Source: Acidobacteriota bacterium (GTDB taxonomy: Bacteria; Acidobacteriota; Thermoanaerobaculia; UBA5066). Taken from it: a DNA stretch of 44,728 nt. Below the pieces are notes generated by a model. The model ran no database searches, was not told the DNA's origin, and saw only the letters and a list, made by a program, of their open reading frames with translations. Position 1 is the stretch's first letter. Every line of letters begins with the position of its first letter. This document shows positions 1,779 through 32,539 of this stretch, in pieces. The position numbers and the translations under genes were made by a program. The stretch is from assembly GCA_039934255.1 (NCBI GenBank), contig JBDTML010000073.1:1-44728 (forward strand), read 5' to 3'.

Positions 1779-1809
1779 GTTCGCTCGGACGTCCTGCTAA
1801 GCTCCCGTG

Positions 1810-3252
1810 GTGAGAGAGCTCTCGCTTCCCCGAAAGGCCCGAAGCGTTTTCGTGGAGACGTGGGGCTGCCAGATGAACGTGCTCGACGGGCGGCGATTCG
1901 TCGGGCTCCTCGGGCGCGAGGGAATCGTCGAGGCCGGCTCGGCCGAGGAGGCCGACGTCGTCCTTCTCAACACGTGTTCGGTGCGCGACAAGGCGGAGCA
2001 GAAAGTCTACGACCGGATCGGCCGCCTCGCGAAGCTGAAGCGCGACCGTCCGGGGATGGTCCTCGGAATCTGCGGCTGCGTCGCGCAGCAGGAAGGGGAG
2101 AGCCTTCTGGAGCGGCTCCCTCTCGTCGATTTCGTCCTCGGCACGGGGCGCATCGAAACCCTCCCCTCGGTTCTGCGCCGGGTGGACGAAGAGGGCGACC
2201 GGCCCTGCGAGACGGGCTTCGACCCGGACGAGGTTGTCTACACACCGGGCGCCGTCGCGCACGCGGTTCCGTACCGCGCGGGAATCACTGTGATCGAGGG
2301 CTGCAACAAGAACTGCACGTTCTGCGTGGTGCCCCGCACCCGCGGCCGCGAGCGCAACCGCCGGCTGCGCGACGTCGTGGACGAAGCGCGCGGCCTCGTC
2401 GAGGCCGGCGCCCTCGAGATCGAACTGCTCGGGCAGACCGTAAACGCGTTCCGGGATCCCGAGACCGGCGAGGATCTCGCCGACCTTCTGCGCGCGGTCG
2501 GTGAGCTGCCGGGAATCCGGCGCCTGCGCTTCGTGACGTCCCATCCACGCAACTTCTCGGACCGGCTCATCGCCGCGATGTGCGAAACACCCGCTGTCGT
2601 CGCGGCGCTTCACTTGCCCGTGCAGTCGGGCTCCGATGCGGTTCTCAACCGGATGAAACGTCAGTACACCCGGGCGGAGTATCTCCATCTCGTCGCGCGG
2701 CTCCGTGCAGAGGTCCCCCGCCTTGCCCTTTCGACGGACGTCATCGTCGGGTTTCCGGGCGAAACGGAGGCCGACTTCGTCGAGACGCTGTCTCTCTTCG
2801 AAGAGGTTCGTTTTGCCGGCGTCTTCTCCTTCACGTACTCGCCGCGACCGCTGACGGCGGCACTTCGGTGGGAGCACGATGTGACGCCGCAGGAGGCCTC
2901 CCAGCGCCTCCTGCGCCTCGAGGCGCTTCAGCAGGGCATTCAAAGGGAACTGAACCGCGCTCTGGAGGGCCAGACGCTCGAGGTACTCGTGGAGGGCCTC
3001 GACCGCAAACGGCGCAACAGCTCCGGCCGGTCGCGCTGTGGCCGCGTCGTGAACATCGCGGGAGAATCGAAACTCGCGCCTGGGACTCTCGTGGACGTTC
3101 GGATCGAACGGGGATTTCCGAATTCTCTGCTCGGAAGAAGACGGGAGAAGACTCAAGACAGGGACGAGGAAGAGATTTCGTTGAAAGGCACTTCCGGCGA
3201 CCGATCTCCCGCCGAAGTTGCGTTTTCCTTCGGCGCGCAAAATCTACCCTAA
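1810..3252 (+). CDS. miaB: tRNA-2-methylthio-N6-dimethylallyladenosine synthase MiaB (radical SAM)
   Basis: ETWGCQMN, LNTCSVRDKAEQK, CGCVAQ, CNKNCTFC radical-SAM motif, LHLPVQSGS and a TRAM domain; start is GTG 1810 or 1807. Confidence 0.93.
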   Translation: MRELSLPRKARSVFVETWGCQMNVLDGRRFVGLLGREGIVEAGSAEEADVVLLNTCSVRDKAEQKVYDRIGRLAKLKRDRPGMVLGICGCVAQQEGESLLERLPLVDFVLGTGRIETLPSVLRRVDEEGDRPCETGFDPDEVVYTPGAVAHAVPYRAGITVIEGCNKNCTFCVVPRTRGRERNRRLRDVVDEARGLVEAGALEIELLGQTVNAFRDPETGEDLADLLRAVGELPGIRRLRFVTSHPRNFSDRLIAAMCETPAVVAALHLPVQSGSDAVLNRMKRQYTRAEYLHLVARLRAEVPRLALSTDVIVGFPGETEADFVETLSLFEEVRFAGVFSFTYSPRPLTAALRWEHDVTPQEASQRLLRLEALQQGIQRELNRALEGQTLEVLVEGLDRKRRNSSGRSRCGRVVNIAGESKLAPGTLVDVRIERGFPNSLLGRRREKTQDRDEEEISLKGTSGDRSPAEVAFSFGAQNLP

Positions 3253-3309
3253 ACCATTCTAAAAAAATAAGTTAACGGCTGTCTAGACGCGCCATCTGCG
3301 GCGCTCGCC

Positions 3310-3338
3310 TTGCATTCGGCTCTCTCTCTACCTAGATT
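3310..3338 (+). promoter_or_regulatory. Putative sigma70 promoter of the DUF151 gene
   Basis: TTGCAT (3310-3315), 17 nt, TAGATT (3333-3338); AGGAG SD at 3346-3350 precedes TTG 3359. Confidence 0.55.
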
Positions 3339-3358
3339 GAGTCTTAGGAGAATTCAAT

Positions 3359-3844
3359 TTGGCCGTCAGGATGGACATCAAGGCTCTGATCGTGGATCCG
3401 ATCGCAAACATGCCGGTCGTGATCCTTCGGGATGAAGAGGAAAAGAACTTCCTTCCGATTTGGGTCGGGATCTTCGAGGCCAACGCGATCGCGCTGCAGA
3501 TGGAAGGCGTCACGACGCCGAGGCCGATGACCCACGATCTCTTGAAGAACCTCATCACGCAGATCGAGGGAGATGTCTTGCGCGTCGTCATCAACAACCT
3601 CAAGGAAAATACGTTCTACGCACAGATCCATCTCCGCGTCGCGAACCGCGAGGTGCTCGTCGACAGCCGCCCGTCCGACGCGATCGCGCTGGCGCTGCGG
3701 GTCGCCGCTCCGGTGTTCGTGGAGGAGTCGGTCCTGGAGAAGAGTCGCAGCGGGGAAGACACCTCGGACGCACAGAACTCCGAGCGTCTTCGAAAGTGGC
3801 TCGAGGAAGCCGACCCGGACACGCTCAGCAAGTACCGGATGTAG
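3359..3844 (+). CDS. Bifunctional nuclease family protein (DUF151/BFN)
   Basis: PVVIL, LPIWVGIFEANAIA, PRPMTHDLL and DSRPSDAIALALR motifs; TTG start with SD. Confidence 0.92.
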   Translation: MAVRMDIKALIVDPIANMPVVILRDEEEKNFLPIWVGIFEANAIALQMEGVTTPRPMTHDLLKNLITQIEGDVLRVVINNLKENTFYAQIHLRVANREVLVDSRPSDAIALALRVAAPVFVEESVLEKSRSGEDTSDAQNSERLRKWLEEADPDTLSKYRM

Positions 3845-3872
3845 TTTTCGGGGTCCGGCACGATTTTCGTCC

Positions 3873-3901
3873 TTGATGCGCTCTCGAGCCCCCCGTATCA
3901 T
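3873..3901 (+). promoter_or_regulatory. Putative sigma70 promoter of the parAB operon
   Basis: TTGATG (3873-3878), 17 nt, TATCAT (3896-3901); 15 nt upstream of the parA ATG, no SD. Confidence 0.55.
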
Positions 3902-3916
3902 CCGCGACTCCATCAA

Positions 3917-4678
3917 ATGATCATCACCGTTGCGAACCAGAAGGGCGGCGTCGGGAAGACCACGACGGCGATCAATCTCGCCGCTGCGCTAGCCCAGAAG
4001 GGCCTCCGCACACTCCTCGTCGACCTGGACCCGCAAGGCAATTCGACCATGTCCTTCCTCGACCGCAAGGATGTGGACAAGTCGATGTACGACGTCCTGA
4101 CCGACCCGAACGTTTCGGTATTCGACATCATCAAACCCACGAAGCTGCCGAAACTCACCGTCGCTCCGGCTCGCATCTCGCTCGCAAAAGTCGAGTCCAA
4201 GCTCCTGGGAGAGATCGACGGCCACTTCAGGCTGAAGGACAAGTTTCAGGTCGTTCGGGAATCCGGGGAGTACGACGCCATCCTCATCGACACGCCGCCC
4301 ACGCTCGGCATGATCACGGTGAATGCGCTCGTCGCCTCCACGCACATCCTGATTCCGATCCAGTCATCCTATTTCGCGCTGGAGGGAACGGACGACCTGC
4401 TCGAGACGATTGAGAAGATCAAGAGCCGTCCGAATCCGAATCTCCAGATCCTCGGCGTCGTGATCACGCTGCACGACAAGCGCACGACCTTGGGAAAGGA
4501 CATTCAGGGCCAGATCGAAGGTGTCTTCAAAGGCAAGCTGTTCAAGACGACGATTTCGAAGTCGATACGCCTCGAGGAGTCGCCCGCGTACCGAGAATCC
4601 ATCTTCACGTTCGCTCCGCGTTCGTCAGGCGCGCTCGAGTACTACAGCCTGACGGAGGAGATACTTTCCCGTGTCTAA
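3917..4678 (+). CDS. parA: ParA/Soj family partitioning ATPase
   Basis: Deviant Walker A (ANQKGGVGKTTT), VDLDPQGN, IDTPP and IRLEESP. Confidence 0.93.
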   Translation: MIITVANQKGGVGKTTTAINLAAALAQKGLRTLLVDLDPQGNSTMSFLDRKDVDKSMYDVLTDPNVSVFDIIKPTKLPKLTVAPARISLAKVESKLLGEIDGHFRLKDKFQVVRESGEYDAILIDTPPTLGMITVNALVASTHILIPIQSSYFALEGTDDLLETIEKIKSRPNPNLQILGVVITLHDKRTTLGKDIQGQIEGVFKGKLFKTTISKSIRLEESPAYRESIFTFAPRSSGALEYYSLTEEILSRV

Positions 4679-5582
4679 GCGCCGTGGCCTTCCCGAAACC
4701 TCGCGTATGCGGCACGACTCGCACTTCGTCGACCAGCTCGTTCGCGCCGACGAACTTCCGGTCGGGCGCCGCATTCCAATTCACCTCATCGAAGCGAATC
4801 CGGATCAGCCCCGGAGTGTCATGGGAGACCTCTCGGAGCTCACGAAGTCCATCGTCGATAAGGGCGTTCTCGAGCCCATTCTGGTCCGCCCCCGCGGCGA
4901 TGGGCGTTTCACGATTATTTCTGGAGAGCGTCGATTTCGAGCCTCCCTTGATGCGGGTCTCGCTGAAATACCGTGCATTGAAATGGACGTCCCGGATAAC
5001 GAGCTTCTCGAAATCGCACTCATCGAGAATCTACAGCGCAAGGATCTCAGCCCATTCGAAGAAGCGGAGGGGTACCGGGCTCTTCAGGAGCGCCACGGAT
5101 ACACGCATGAGCAGGTCGCGGATGCGGTGGGGAAGTCGCGTGTCACGATCACCGAGGCGTTGTCCATCGCGCGACTGCCGGATCGTGTCCAGGCCGAATG
5201 TCGGCGCGCCGACATTGGCTCTCGATCCTTCCTCCTGGAGCTCGGACGCCTCAAGGACGAGGACCTAATGCTCGCTGCCGTGGCGGAAATGGCGGGCGGC
5301 GAAGGCTTCAGTCGCGACGCCCTTCGGGAGGCGAAGAAGGACGCCCGCCGAGGAACCGGAGCAGGCACAAAACTCGGTGGGCTCAAGAAGGCGTACTCGC
5401 TCGACTTCAGTCCGGCGAACAGGAACTACAAGGTCAGTCTCGTCCTCAAGGGGCGCATGCACAAGAAGGACGAGATCCTCGAAGCGATCAGGGATCTCGC
5501 ACGCCGGATCGAGGCAGGAGACATCGACCTCGAGACGCAGGGCCGCTTCGTGAAAGTTAAAGCGAAGAAGAGAACTTCTTAG
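4671..5582 (+). CDS. parB: ParB/Spo0J family partitioning protein (divergent HTH region)
   Basis: NPDQPR, GVLEPILVRP, ISGERRFRA (CTP-binding box), ENLQRKDLSPFEEA and an HTH; overlaps the parA stop. Confidence 0.9.
   Translation: MSKRRGLPETSRMRHDSHFVDQLVRADELPVGRRIPIHLIEANPDQPRSVMGDLSELTKSIVDKGVLEPILVRPRGDGRFTIISGERRFRASLDAGLAEIPCIEMDVPDNELLEIALIENLQRKDLSPFEEAEGYRALQERHGYTHEQVADAVGKSRVTITEALSIARLPDRVQAECRRADIGSRSFLLELGRLKDEDLMLAAVAEMAGGEGFSRDALREAKKDARRGTGAGTKLGGLKKAYSLDFSPANRNYKVSLVLKGRMHKKDEILEAIRDLARRIEAGDIDLETQGRFVKVKAKKRTS
5197..5216. repeat. Perfect 20-bp palindrome inside parB; candidate non-canonical parS site
   Basis: AATGTCGGCG|CGCCGACATT; the 16-bp core TGTCGGCGCGCCGACA has the length and TGT..ACA ends of canonical parS. 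The palindrome is certain; the parS role is inferred. Confidence 0.55.
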
Positions 5583-5600
5583 GAAGAGAATCCGGACTAG

Positions 5601-5626
5601 GACTTCTTAGAACAGGAGAAGAGGGG
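5601..5626 (-). repeat. Copy of dispersed purine/pyrimidine-asymmetric motif
   Basis: Reverse complement CCCCTCTTCTCCTGTTCTAAGAAGTC; shares TTCTAAGAAGTC exactly with the copy at 10472-10495. Confidence 0.6.
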
Positions 5627-5746
5627 CTCCGCACGCGCGCTCGGTTGCGGCTAAATACTTACACTCCGGGGCGCGTGAACCCGCTTCGATCCTTTTATTG
5701 CTTCCCGAATGGGTCGCCTTATCTTTTCTGGTTGCCGGCACCAGTT

Positions 5747-5774
5747 ATTTAACATAATAAATATTATCGGACAT
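5747..5774 (-). other. dif: dif site (XerC/XerD chromosome dimer resolution site)
   Basis: Minus strand ATGTCCGATAA-TATTTA-TTATGTTAAAT, an 11-6-11 layout; the XerD arm is identical to E. coli dif (TTATGTTAAAT); intergenic AT-rich island in a GC-rich genome. Confidence 0.9.
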
Positions 5775-5818
5775 TGCGTTATGGCGTAAGAATCGGGATT
5801 ACTCGGCTACGATCTGCC

Positions 5819-10430
<4,612 letters not shown>

Positions 10431-31612: not shown

Positions 31613-32539
31613 TCAAGCCCGGGGGTGCGTCCGGTCGTAGACCTTCCGGACCCGCGAACGTGAGACGTGGGTGTAGATCTCGGTCGTCGCGATGTCCGCG
31701 TGGCCGAGCATCATCTGCACGGCCCTGAGATCGGCGTCGTTGTCGACGAGATGGGTGGCGAACGCATGCCGAAGGACGTGTGGCGACACGGCGGACGCCG
31801 CCAGGCCCGCCTTCCGCGCGGCGGCCTTGAGCGCCAGGAAGACGGTCTGCCGCGTGATCGGCTTCCCCCGTGCGCCCGGGAACACCCATCGCCCCGCGGC
31901 ACCCGATGCTTTGGACCGTGCGGCCTTCAGATAGCGCGCCACCCAGCGCGCCGAGGAATCTGCGATCGGCACGACCCTCTCCTTCGCGCCCTTGCCGCGT
32001 ACCACGATGAATCCTTCAGGCAGGCGCAGCGCTTCGACGGGCAATCCGGCGACCTCGGAGACGCGGAGGCCGCACGCATAAAGCAGCTCGAACAAAGCGC
32101 GGTTGCGCAGACCCTTCGGCGTCGTCACGTCGGGCCCGTCCAGGAGACGGGTCACTTCCTCCGGCGAGAGGACTTTCGGCAGCATCGCCCACCGGCGGGC
32201 GTTCGTGAGGTCGGCCGTCGGATCCATCTCGAGAATCTTCTCGGCGGCGAGAAATCCGTAAAGACCGCGGAGCGCCGAAGTGAGTCTCGCGAGGGTGCGC
32301 GGCGACATTCCTTCCGCGCGTCGGATCCCGAGATAGGCGACGATGTCGCCCCGCTGGACCCGGGACGGATTCGCCCGCGAGGACACGAGATGCGCCCCGA
32401 ACGCCGCGAGATCGCGGTGATAAGCCTCGAGCGTGTTCGAAGAGAGGCCCTTTTCCGCCGAAAGATAGTCGAGGTAGAGCGGGAGGTGCTTCTGAAAGAA
32501 GACGCCGGCCGGCGTTTTGGCAGGAGATCCCGAACTCAC
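31613..32539 (-). CDS. xerD: Tyrosine recombinase XerD
   Basis: LSSNTLEAY, LLYACGLRVSE, GKGAKERVVP and SPHVLRHAFATHL..ADLRAVQMMLGHADIATTEIYTHV (XerD-type tail). Confidence 0.9.
   Translation of the reverse strand: MSSGSPAKTPAGVFFQKHLPLYLDYLSAEKGLSSNTLEAYHRDLAAFGAHLVSSRANPSRVQRGDIVAYLGIRRAEGMSPRTLARLTSALRGLYGFLAAEKILEMDPTADLTNARRWAMLPKVLSPEEVTRLLDGPDVTTPKGLRNRALFELLYACGLRVSEVAGLPVEALRLPEGFIVVRGKGAKERVVPIADSSARWVARYLKAARSKASGAAGRWVFPGARGKPITRQTVFLALKAAARKAGLAASAVSPHVLRHAFATHLVDNDADLRAVQMMLGHADIATTEIYTHVSRSRVRKVYDRTHPRA

Follow-up and report, generated by a model that had tools for sequence, protein, structure and literature searches.

A second ParA-ParB pair beside dif in Acidobacteriota, a candidate ParABS system of the replication terminus

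The window considered here is the whole of a 44.7-kb contig (C73) from a metagenome-assembled genome (MAG) of a soil bacterium of the class Thermoanaerobaculia, phylum Acidobacteriota (assembly G000; 3.43 Mb in 375 contigs, 82% complete). It carries a pair of genes, parA2 and parB2 (together parAB2), for a Soj-type ParA ATPase and a ParB-family CTPase-type protein, with dif, the XerC/XerD chromosome-dimer resolution site, shortly downstream (Table 1). A first-pass annotation, made from the sequence alone, had described a parA-parB operon ending at 5582 with its own -35/-10 promoter, a near-canonical 28-bp dif beyond it, and miaB, DUF151 and lptFG as neighbours, with no origin-type gene among them. 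Open reading frames (ORFs), Pfam matches and a consensus scan place the operon and its promoter as described, profile matches give the same neighbours and no origin-type genes around the locus in the window, and dif is present, its sequence being the sole match in the assembly at up to 7 mismatches. A further element, a palindrome within parB2 referred to below as parS2, was absent from that annotation and is new here. Compared with related genomes, the locus proves to be a second parA-parB pair with intact catalytic motifs and its own conserved palindrome, located at the terminus by a single dif and inherited across much of the phylum beside a canonical system.

Table 1. Features of the parAB2 locus and of the window, with positions counted from the first nucleotide of the contig
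Feature	Position	Strand	Basis and details
miaB, upstream neighbour	1807-3252		profile search
BFN/DUF151 bifunctional-nuclease-domain gene, constant upstream neighbour	3359-3844	+	Pfam BFN_dom, E 3e-42
sigma-70-type promoter of parA2-parB2	3873-3901	+	TTGATG, 17-nt spacer, TATCAT; consensus scan
parA2, Soj-type ParA ATPase, 253 aa	3917-4678	+	Pfam AAA_31, E 2e-56
parB2, ParB-family CTPase-type protein, 303 aa	4671-5582	+	Pfam ParB_N, HTH_ParB; TIGR00180
parS2 candidate, perfect 20-bp palindrome	5197-5216	.	inside parB2; 16-bp core TGTCGGCGCGCCGACA at 5199-5214
terminator-like hairpin, T-run entering dif	5728-5744	+	scan; site number not above shuffles
dif, XerC/XerD chromosome-dimer resolution site, 28 bp	5747-5774	.	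motif search; 11-6-11 layout
fused lptF/lptG permease gene, downstream neighbour	5774-8128	+	Pfam LptF_LptG, two stretches, E 1e-139
xerD	31616-32476	-	TIGR02225, 334 bits vs cut-off 329.6

The parA2 and parB2 ORFs overlap by 8 nt. Upstream of them, both hexamers of the promoter are preserved when 29 orthologous loci are aligned, with a spacer that varies; the scan for sigma-70-like consensus sites found two in the region, against a mean of 0.6 in shuffled sequences. The parA2 product also matches CbiA/ParA-type Pfam families, and its closest solved chains are those of ParA/Soj (E 1e-54 to 1e-46). Its deviant Walker A motif (NQKGGVGKTTT), D36/D38 and D125 are invariant among 23 aligned ParA2 and ParA1 sequences, and R189 (ParA2 numbering), also invariant, is presumably the counterpart of the DNA-binding arginine of Soj. 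Across the phylum ParA2 is 57-80% identical, and is more conserved than ParB2.

On sequence grounds, ParB2 belongs to the chromosomal ParB/Noc CTPase family, with the motifs of the nucleotide pocket intact. It matches Pfam ParB_N (E 3e-26) and HTH_ParB (E 4e-15, spanning positions 1-63 of the 102 in that profile) and passes NCBIfam TIGR00180 with 140.7 bits (cut-off 58.45). Its top NCBIfam match by E-value is the Noc model TIGR04285, but at 145.9 bits this falls short of the cut-off of 315. The CTPase motifs QPR, GERRxRA and ENLQR are retained, with Q46-P47-R48, G85-E86-R87-R88 and E119-N120-R123 invariant or nearly so in 39 sequences. The AlphaFold2 model (mean predicted local distance difference test score, pLDDT, 85) has helices at 128-208 and a confident beta-beta-alpha unit at 241-282, and the top Foldseek matches to it are CTP- or CDP-bound ParB, Spo0J and Noc structures at 34-44% identity. 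At E <= 1e-30 there are about 541 matches to ParB2 among 1.84 billion cluster representatives; those with the N-terminal peptide considered below are roughly the top 60-100.

Chromosomal parAB genes normally lie near oriC, for example after mnmG and rsmG, and dif marks the opposite pole. The genome considered here has such a canonical pair as well: contig C113 carries yidD-yidC-mnmE-mnmG-rsmG-parA-parB, and the only perfect copy of the canonical parS, TGTTTCACGTGAAACA, in the assembly lies on that contig between rsmG and parA. The window itself has no match to canonical parS, and the parAB2 locus does not have the make-up of an origin-type ParABS system (parS TGTTNCACGTGNAACA, origin-proximal, beside rsmG/mnmG). 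The proteins of the canonical pair (ParA1, ParB1) are clearly distinct from those of the window, with 42% identity between ParA2 and ParA1 and 45% between ParB2 and ParB1 over residues 33-203. The ParB phylogeny proposed with the first-pass annotation agrees: in a quick maximum-likelihood tree of 81 sequences (29 full-length representatives and 47 lower-ranked matches of 260-330 aa among them, fragments omitted), 31 of 32 rows labelled ParB2 form one group (Shimodaira-Hasegawa-like approximate likelihood ratio test, SH-aLRT, 92) and the ParB1 of this genome falls in a separate clade (SH-aLRT 96). The locus is therefore not the sole parAB of its genome, and the suggestion of a second, dedicated ParAB pair stands.

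The location of this pair is best seen in closed relatives, the assembly of the window itself being fragmented; GC skew within the window is uninformative on the terminus, as the contig ends 5.7 kb to the left of dif. Ten closed replicons were compared, representing five families within the class and three families of other classes. In all ten, parB2 or dif lies nearly half a replicon away from dnaA (fractions of 0.496, 0.489, 0.497, 0.495, 0.417, 0.470, 0.476, 0.473, 0.497 and 0.488). GC skew in G028 was sampled in 20-kb pieces: all 11 from 0.68-2.42 Mb have a negative value and seven of the eight on the other arc a positive one, and the switches of sign bracket dif (0.59 Mb) and dnaA (2.49 Mb). 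The terminus rather than the origin is thus where these genes sit, as had been supposed. The ParB1 gene, on the other hand, is separated from dnaA by 9-16 kb in the five genomes checked for it, and variants of canonical parS occur within about 25 kb of dnaA in five of six closed genomes examined (G028, G251, G359, G239 and G059); none were found in the sixth, G159.

A degenerate 21-nt dif pattern has exactly one match in eight of the ten closed genomes (none for the reversed control), adjoining parB2 in seven of the eight. The two genomes of genus g38 have no strict dif match; what they carry is a weak dif-like site, immediately before lptFG and 3-5 kb away from parB2. A two-replicon genome, G287, shows a different arrangement: the large replicon carries parAB2 and five parS2 sites opposite dnaA (contig 1, 1,260,076-1,340,758), and the strict dif pattern matches the small replicon only (contig 2, 533,272).

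ParB2 is widespread. A match was found in all 41 close relatives, in 150 of 151 genomes of the class and in 148 of 251 genomes of the phylum (completeness >=95%; threshold E <= 1e-40 for both larger samples; the unpublished genomes G025, G030, G154 and G282 are included in the tallies, and nothing said here at the level of sequence depends on them), with whole families of the phylum lacking it. Within the class there is one match per genome, except for G055 with two on two contigs. Gene order is also well kept: 15 of the 16 loci of 20 kb that were compared, drawn from several families, show miaB-BFN-parA2-parB2, with parA2 itself present in 12 of them. The linkage of parA, parB and dif, whose reach across the phylum the first-pass annotation had raised as a check, is conserved. 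It extends through the class, and dif is mostly within about 1 kb of parB2 in loci labelled Vicinamibacteria, Aminicenantes and Pyrinomonadaceae; it was not seen beside parB2 in Blastocatellia, Chloracidobacterium, Terriglobia or Acidiferrales loci, using the degenerate pattern and a 3-kb flank. Among three genomes without ParB2, G192 has miaB, BFN and dif with nothing between BFN and dif, and the other two have no dif-like site there.

The palindrome in parB2 has the properties expected of a selected element. It sits 533 bp from dif, and TGTCGGC-NN-GCCGACA has a single match in the assembly at up to one mismatch (reversed control, none). Among 44 distinct parB2 genes from the order, the six codons of the palindrome have a third-position entropy of 0.18 bits, compared with 1.06 in 104 other codons for conserved amino acids; the palindrome has the lowest synonymous entropy of all sliding windows, and just 2% of the codons outside it are equally fixed. 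The core was then counted in 137 loci (1.08 Mb), restricted to those scoring 130 bits or more with ParB2 in tblastn and with L002, L003 and L151-L170 omitted. These do not amount to 137 genomes, because some share one (L033/L065, probably L009/L066), and as the loci are kin, counts across them are not independent. There are 111 matches in 101 of the loci and none for the reversed control. The copies are found either within parB2, at +513 to +531, or 57-180 nt upstream of parA2, and some loci have both, or a copy downstream. Where ParB2 lacks the CRRADI stretch, the same core is found in the non-coding DNA upstream of parA2. The palindrome thus appears to be a selected cis element which moves independently of the coding sequence, and it is a good candidate for the centromere of the system (parS2), to which we infer that ParB2 binds.

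The placement of further copies is consistent with this. Relatives have from one to seven, grouped around dif and parB2. Among closed genomes, a single exact core is found in parB2 in G028, G239 and G359, upstream of parA2 in G159, and at 22.5 and 231 kb from parB2 in G111 and G084, respectively. G251 has five within 875-1005 kb (parB2 at 928 kb), and the first contig of G287 has four within 1260-1313 kb (parB2 at 1299 kb). All 15 exact cores in these eight genomes are thus no more than 231 kb from parB2, and 14 are no more than 80 kb away. Sites with one mismatch enlarge the clusters and add a few scattered matches, at a stringency where the reversed control also gives 0-5 per genome. G059, which lacks parA2, has no exact core; five of its six one-mismatch sites lie at 0.74-1.54 Mb, with parB2 at 1.06 Mb. 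Of the 12 loci among L047-L061 (genus g31) with a call, 11 have a one-mismatch site some 5.2-6.0 kb past dif. Outside the Acidobacteriota, the same palindrome is found inside the parB of a Binatia MAG contig (L133) and of L135, in a sister clade of ParB2; in L133 the next gene encodes an HTH_36 protein, a context that we take, weakly, to be possibly of plasmid type.

A family-specific peptide at the N-terminus of ParB2 (K/R-R-G-L-P, four residues, M-R-H-D-x-H-[FY]-V) appears to be tied to ParA2. Of the loci compared, 118 have the peptide together with an adjacent parA2, 17 have neither, two have parA2 alone and none has the peptide alone. Genus g31 (L047-L061), like L128 and L130, keeps parB2, dif and parS2-like sites and has lost parA2 and the peptide together: in g31 parA2 is cleanly absent between BFN and parB2, and ParB2 begins directly after the peptide position. 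Joint loss is seen at least twice in lineages with separate labels, in g31 and in one Aminicenantes-labelled locus. A structure prediction for two ParA2 chains with ATP and ParB2 residues 1-45 gave a score of 0.00, which is no verdict and counts neither way.

Taken as a whole, these observations are probably best explained by a second ParABS system, complete in its parts and tied to the replication terminus, which would position or segregate the ter region. ParB2 dimers would load at parS2 and spread as CTP-gated clamps, giving a partition complex on terminus DNA, and the conserved N-terminal peptide would stimulate nucleoid-bound ParA2-ATP. The resulting ParA gradient could keep a single terminus complex at mid-nucleoid, thereby placing dif at the septum as it closes, the site of FtsK and XerCD action, and could drive the two sister termini apart after they are unlinked. 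The origin would be handled separately by the canonical ParAB1-parS system. More tentatively, and with slightly less than even confidence, the chromosome of many Acidobacteriota could be described as one with two centromeres: a ParABS system at the origin, and ParA2-ParB2-parS2 actively centring dif at the division plane and separating the last-replicated DNA, with ParB2 serving as a static Ter organiser, with more dispersed sites, in lineages without ParA2 such as g31.

Several points weigh against a terminus segregation system. The role itself, whether in terminus positioning or segregation or in coupling to XerCD/FtsK, is one that we infer from sequence comparison. Since 103 of the 251 phylum genomes have no ParB2 match at E <= 1e-40, the system must be dispensable in whole families. 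Proximity to dif may be inherited synteny rather than a mechanistic link, because the whole block of genes is syntenic and G192 has dif in place without parAB2. In genus g38, dif is 3-5 kb from parB2 and the sole exact parS2 is 22 kb or 231 kb away. No parS2 match was found in 36 of the 137 loci within the DNA examined, and a single palindrome near a promoter could possibly be a mere autoregulatory operator. ParB2 has no match to Pfam ParB_C, whereas ParB1 has one, which bears on its predicted dimerisation and clamp formation. Finally, g31 and at least one Aminicenantes-labelled locus keep ParB2, dif and parS2-like sites without parA2, so the function must be at least partly independent of the motor.

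This last point leads to the best of the alternatives, although it too seems unlikely: that ParB2-parS2 is mainly a static landmark or organiser of the terminus, in the manner of MatP/matS or Noc, or else a marker of the division site, in which case ParA2 would have the divisome as its target, as MipZ or PomZ do, rather than serve as a motor of DNA segregation. Retention of ParB2, dif and several parS2-like sites in lineages without parA2 would fit such a role, particularly in G059, where five of the six one-mismatch sites are spread over 0.8 Mb around parB2, and so would the arrays of sites covering 80-130 kb around dif in G251 and G287. Most genomes, however, have only one or two sites, right at the operon, as is typical of a centromere. 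An overlapping and highly conserved parA2 in 118 of 137 loci, 57-80% identical across the phylum, also counts against such a role, and the N-terminal peptide is lost only when parA2 is lost. The Noc model is the best NCBIfam match of ParB2 by E-value, but the score is less than half of the family cut-off.

A loading function has also been considered, in which ParB2-parS2 at the terminus would be a loading or unloading station for an SMC-type condensin or for topoisomerase IV, FtsK or XerCD, with ParA2 as a regulator only. In canonical systems ParB is known to load SMC at parS (PMC4536313, PMC9564211), parS2 and dif are 533 bp apart, and the window also encodes XerD. There is no link in sequence between ParB2 and SMC or Xer, though, nor any such gene in the conserved block, and this explanation is regarded as improbable.

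The origin of the locus raises one more alternative, namely that parAB2 is a domesticated or relic partition cassette, from a plasmid or a Xer-exploiting element integrated at dif, in which the palindrome now serves mostly for self-repression. Some features do recall a mobile past: the Binatia locus in the sister clade, with the same palindrome in parB beside an HTH_36 gene (a context whose plasmid-like character is a weak reading); the arrangement in G192, with nothing between BFN and dif; and a GC content of 0.59 in parAB2 compared with 0.67 in its flanks (window 3001-6000). The GC difference, however, is general for these genes in high-GC relatives. In 10 of 13 20-kb loci of relatives with parA2, parAB2 is 2-6 GC points below its flanks, with the largest dip in the high-GC ones, and because the dip recurs in this way it is better seen as a property of the genes than as a sign of recent transfer. 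A plasmid origin for ParB2 was rejected after comparison with PLSDB: none of the 28 matching records covers as much as 80% of ParB2, and the best identities, about 44-50%, are limited to the core. All catalytic motifs are intact, and there is no second dif flanking parAB2 at up to 7 mismatches in the assembly, as there would be in the signature of an integrative mobile element exploiting Xer (IMEX). The relic cassette is disfavoured by the presence of the system in 150 of the 151 genomes of the class, with a single copy in nearly all, and in several classes, by extra parS2 copies at distances of tens of kb to either side of dif, and by the lack of a flanking dif or of a plasmid relative in PLSDB; it appears the least probable of the explanations.

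A terminus ParABS system would combine familiar parts in an unfamiliar place. In the textbook view, ParABS is tied to the origin. With canonical systems (Soj/Spo0J) the parAB2 system shares a Soj-type ParA with a deviant Walker A motif in a parA-parB operon, a ParB with an N-terminal CTPase domain (GERRxRA, ENLQR) and a helix-turn-helix, and a palindrome of 16 bp located within the operon or next to it. It differs from them in lying opposite the origin, beside dif, while coexisting with a canonical system on the same chromosome; in its palindrome, TGTCGGC-NN-GCCGACA, which is not the canonical parS that these genomes have at the origin; and in ParB2 itself, with its family-specific N-terminal peptide (RGLP...MRHDxH[FY]V) and a C-terminal domain outside Pfam ParB_C.

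Sequence-specific proteins with sites confined to the terminus around dif are known in MatP/matS of the enterobacterial Ter macrodomain and in ZapT of Caulobacter. The likeness to these is one of analogy: the candidate ParB2 sites are near the terminus and dif, and alignment of ter with the septum would be a plausible role. There is no homology, ParB2 being a ParB-family CTPase with a partner ATPase and having mostly 1-7 sites rather than about two dozen. Noc of the Firmicutes is similar in being a ParB paralogue with changed DNA specificity beside a canonical ParB, and the predicted fold of ParB2 matches Noc structures. Noc, however, is not known to have a dedicated ParA, its gene is near the origin and its many sites avoid the terminus, while the ParB2 sites are few and at the terminus, and ParB2 scores below the Noc family cut-off. 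Finally, secondary replicons can likewise bring a second ParAB pair, with a parS of its own, into a cell, as with ParAB2 of Vibrio chromosome 2 and megaplasmid parABSm. Those systems are described as serving a separate replicon, near its origin (PMC10085754, PMC9140986), whereas the two acidobacterial systems share a chromosome and lie at opposite poles of its replication map.

What is new here is the terminus location, the private centromere candidate and the coexistence with an origin system on one chromosome; the parts themselves are known ParABS parts. To our knowledge, the arrival of the terminus at midcell and its departure have been explained only in a few proteobacteria, by MatP and ZapT, which are unrelated to ParB. 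No terminus-located ParABS system, study of an acidobacterial ParB or mention of the 16-mer was found in open-access full texts and preprints, a search whose coverage did not extend to supplements, subscription journals and some 1.7 million PubMed Central (PMC) articles. A 2011 survey of dif sites (PMC3025954) predicted dif in three of three Acidobacteria, and its main text contains neither "ParB" nor "neighbo"; a further report (10.64898/2026.07.20.739713) is, in the part available, origin-based and not relevant to a terminus system.

If the proposed role is correct, a phylum-wide ParABS system with a private centromere by dif would be a new solution to terminus positioning, and a two-centromere chromosome would be the active, motor-driven counterpart of MatP-type Ter organisation. 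It would also show two orthogonal ParB-parS pairs occurring naturally on one chromosome, and would yield a new orthogonal ParB/parS pair for DNA labelling. The predictions as to the binding site, the N-terminal peptide in contact with ParA2 and localisation to the terminus are sharp and testable.

The wider neighbourhood and the Xer machinery may be noted briefly. The block miaB-BFN/DUF151-parA2-parB2-dif-lptFG (window 1807-8128) is syntenic in several classes of the phylum (L046-L065, L146-L150), frequently with metK as the next gene; such synteny is unusual for a terminus region. The BFN gene is always immediately upstream of parA2 and could belong to the parAB2 system. On the other side, lptF and lptG form one 784-aa ORF, a fusion that is kept in relatives; its true start is probably downstream of 5774. 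The xerD gene, whose product is among the recombinases expected to work at dif, is 26 kb from dif on the same contig; a second Xer-type, XerC-like gene is found on C321 (302 bits, under the XerD cut-off), and FtsK with a gamma domain is encoded on C103.

Between parB2 and dif there are two kinds of repeated or symmetrical sequence. Fixed about 12 nt upstream of dif (window ~5710-5746) is an inverted repeat of the type GCCTAA...TTAGGC, with compensating changes between species in genus-level loci, which may be a terminator or an accessory dif site. An AT-rich motif, TTCTTAGAA, was considered as a ParB2 site and rejected, being a dispersed intergenic repeat with 210 copies in the assembly. This repeat has the core TTCT-N-AGAA (typically ATTTTCTTAGAAGGTGAAGA) and is found in the window at 5604, 10482 and 13360, for example. 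Its copies are often in inverted pairs, 70-150 nt apart, and it looks like an element of the repetitive extragenic palindromic (REP) or miniature inverted-repeat transposable element (MITE) type, or a bidirectional terminator.

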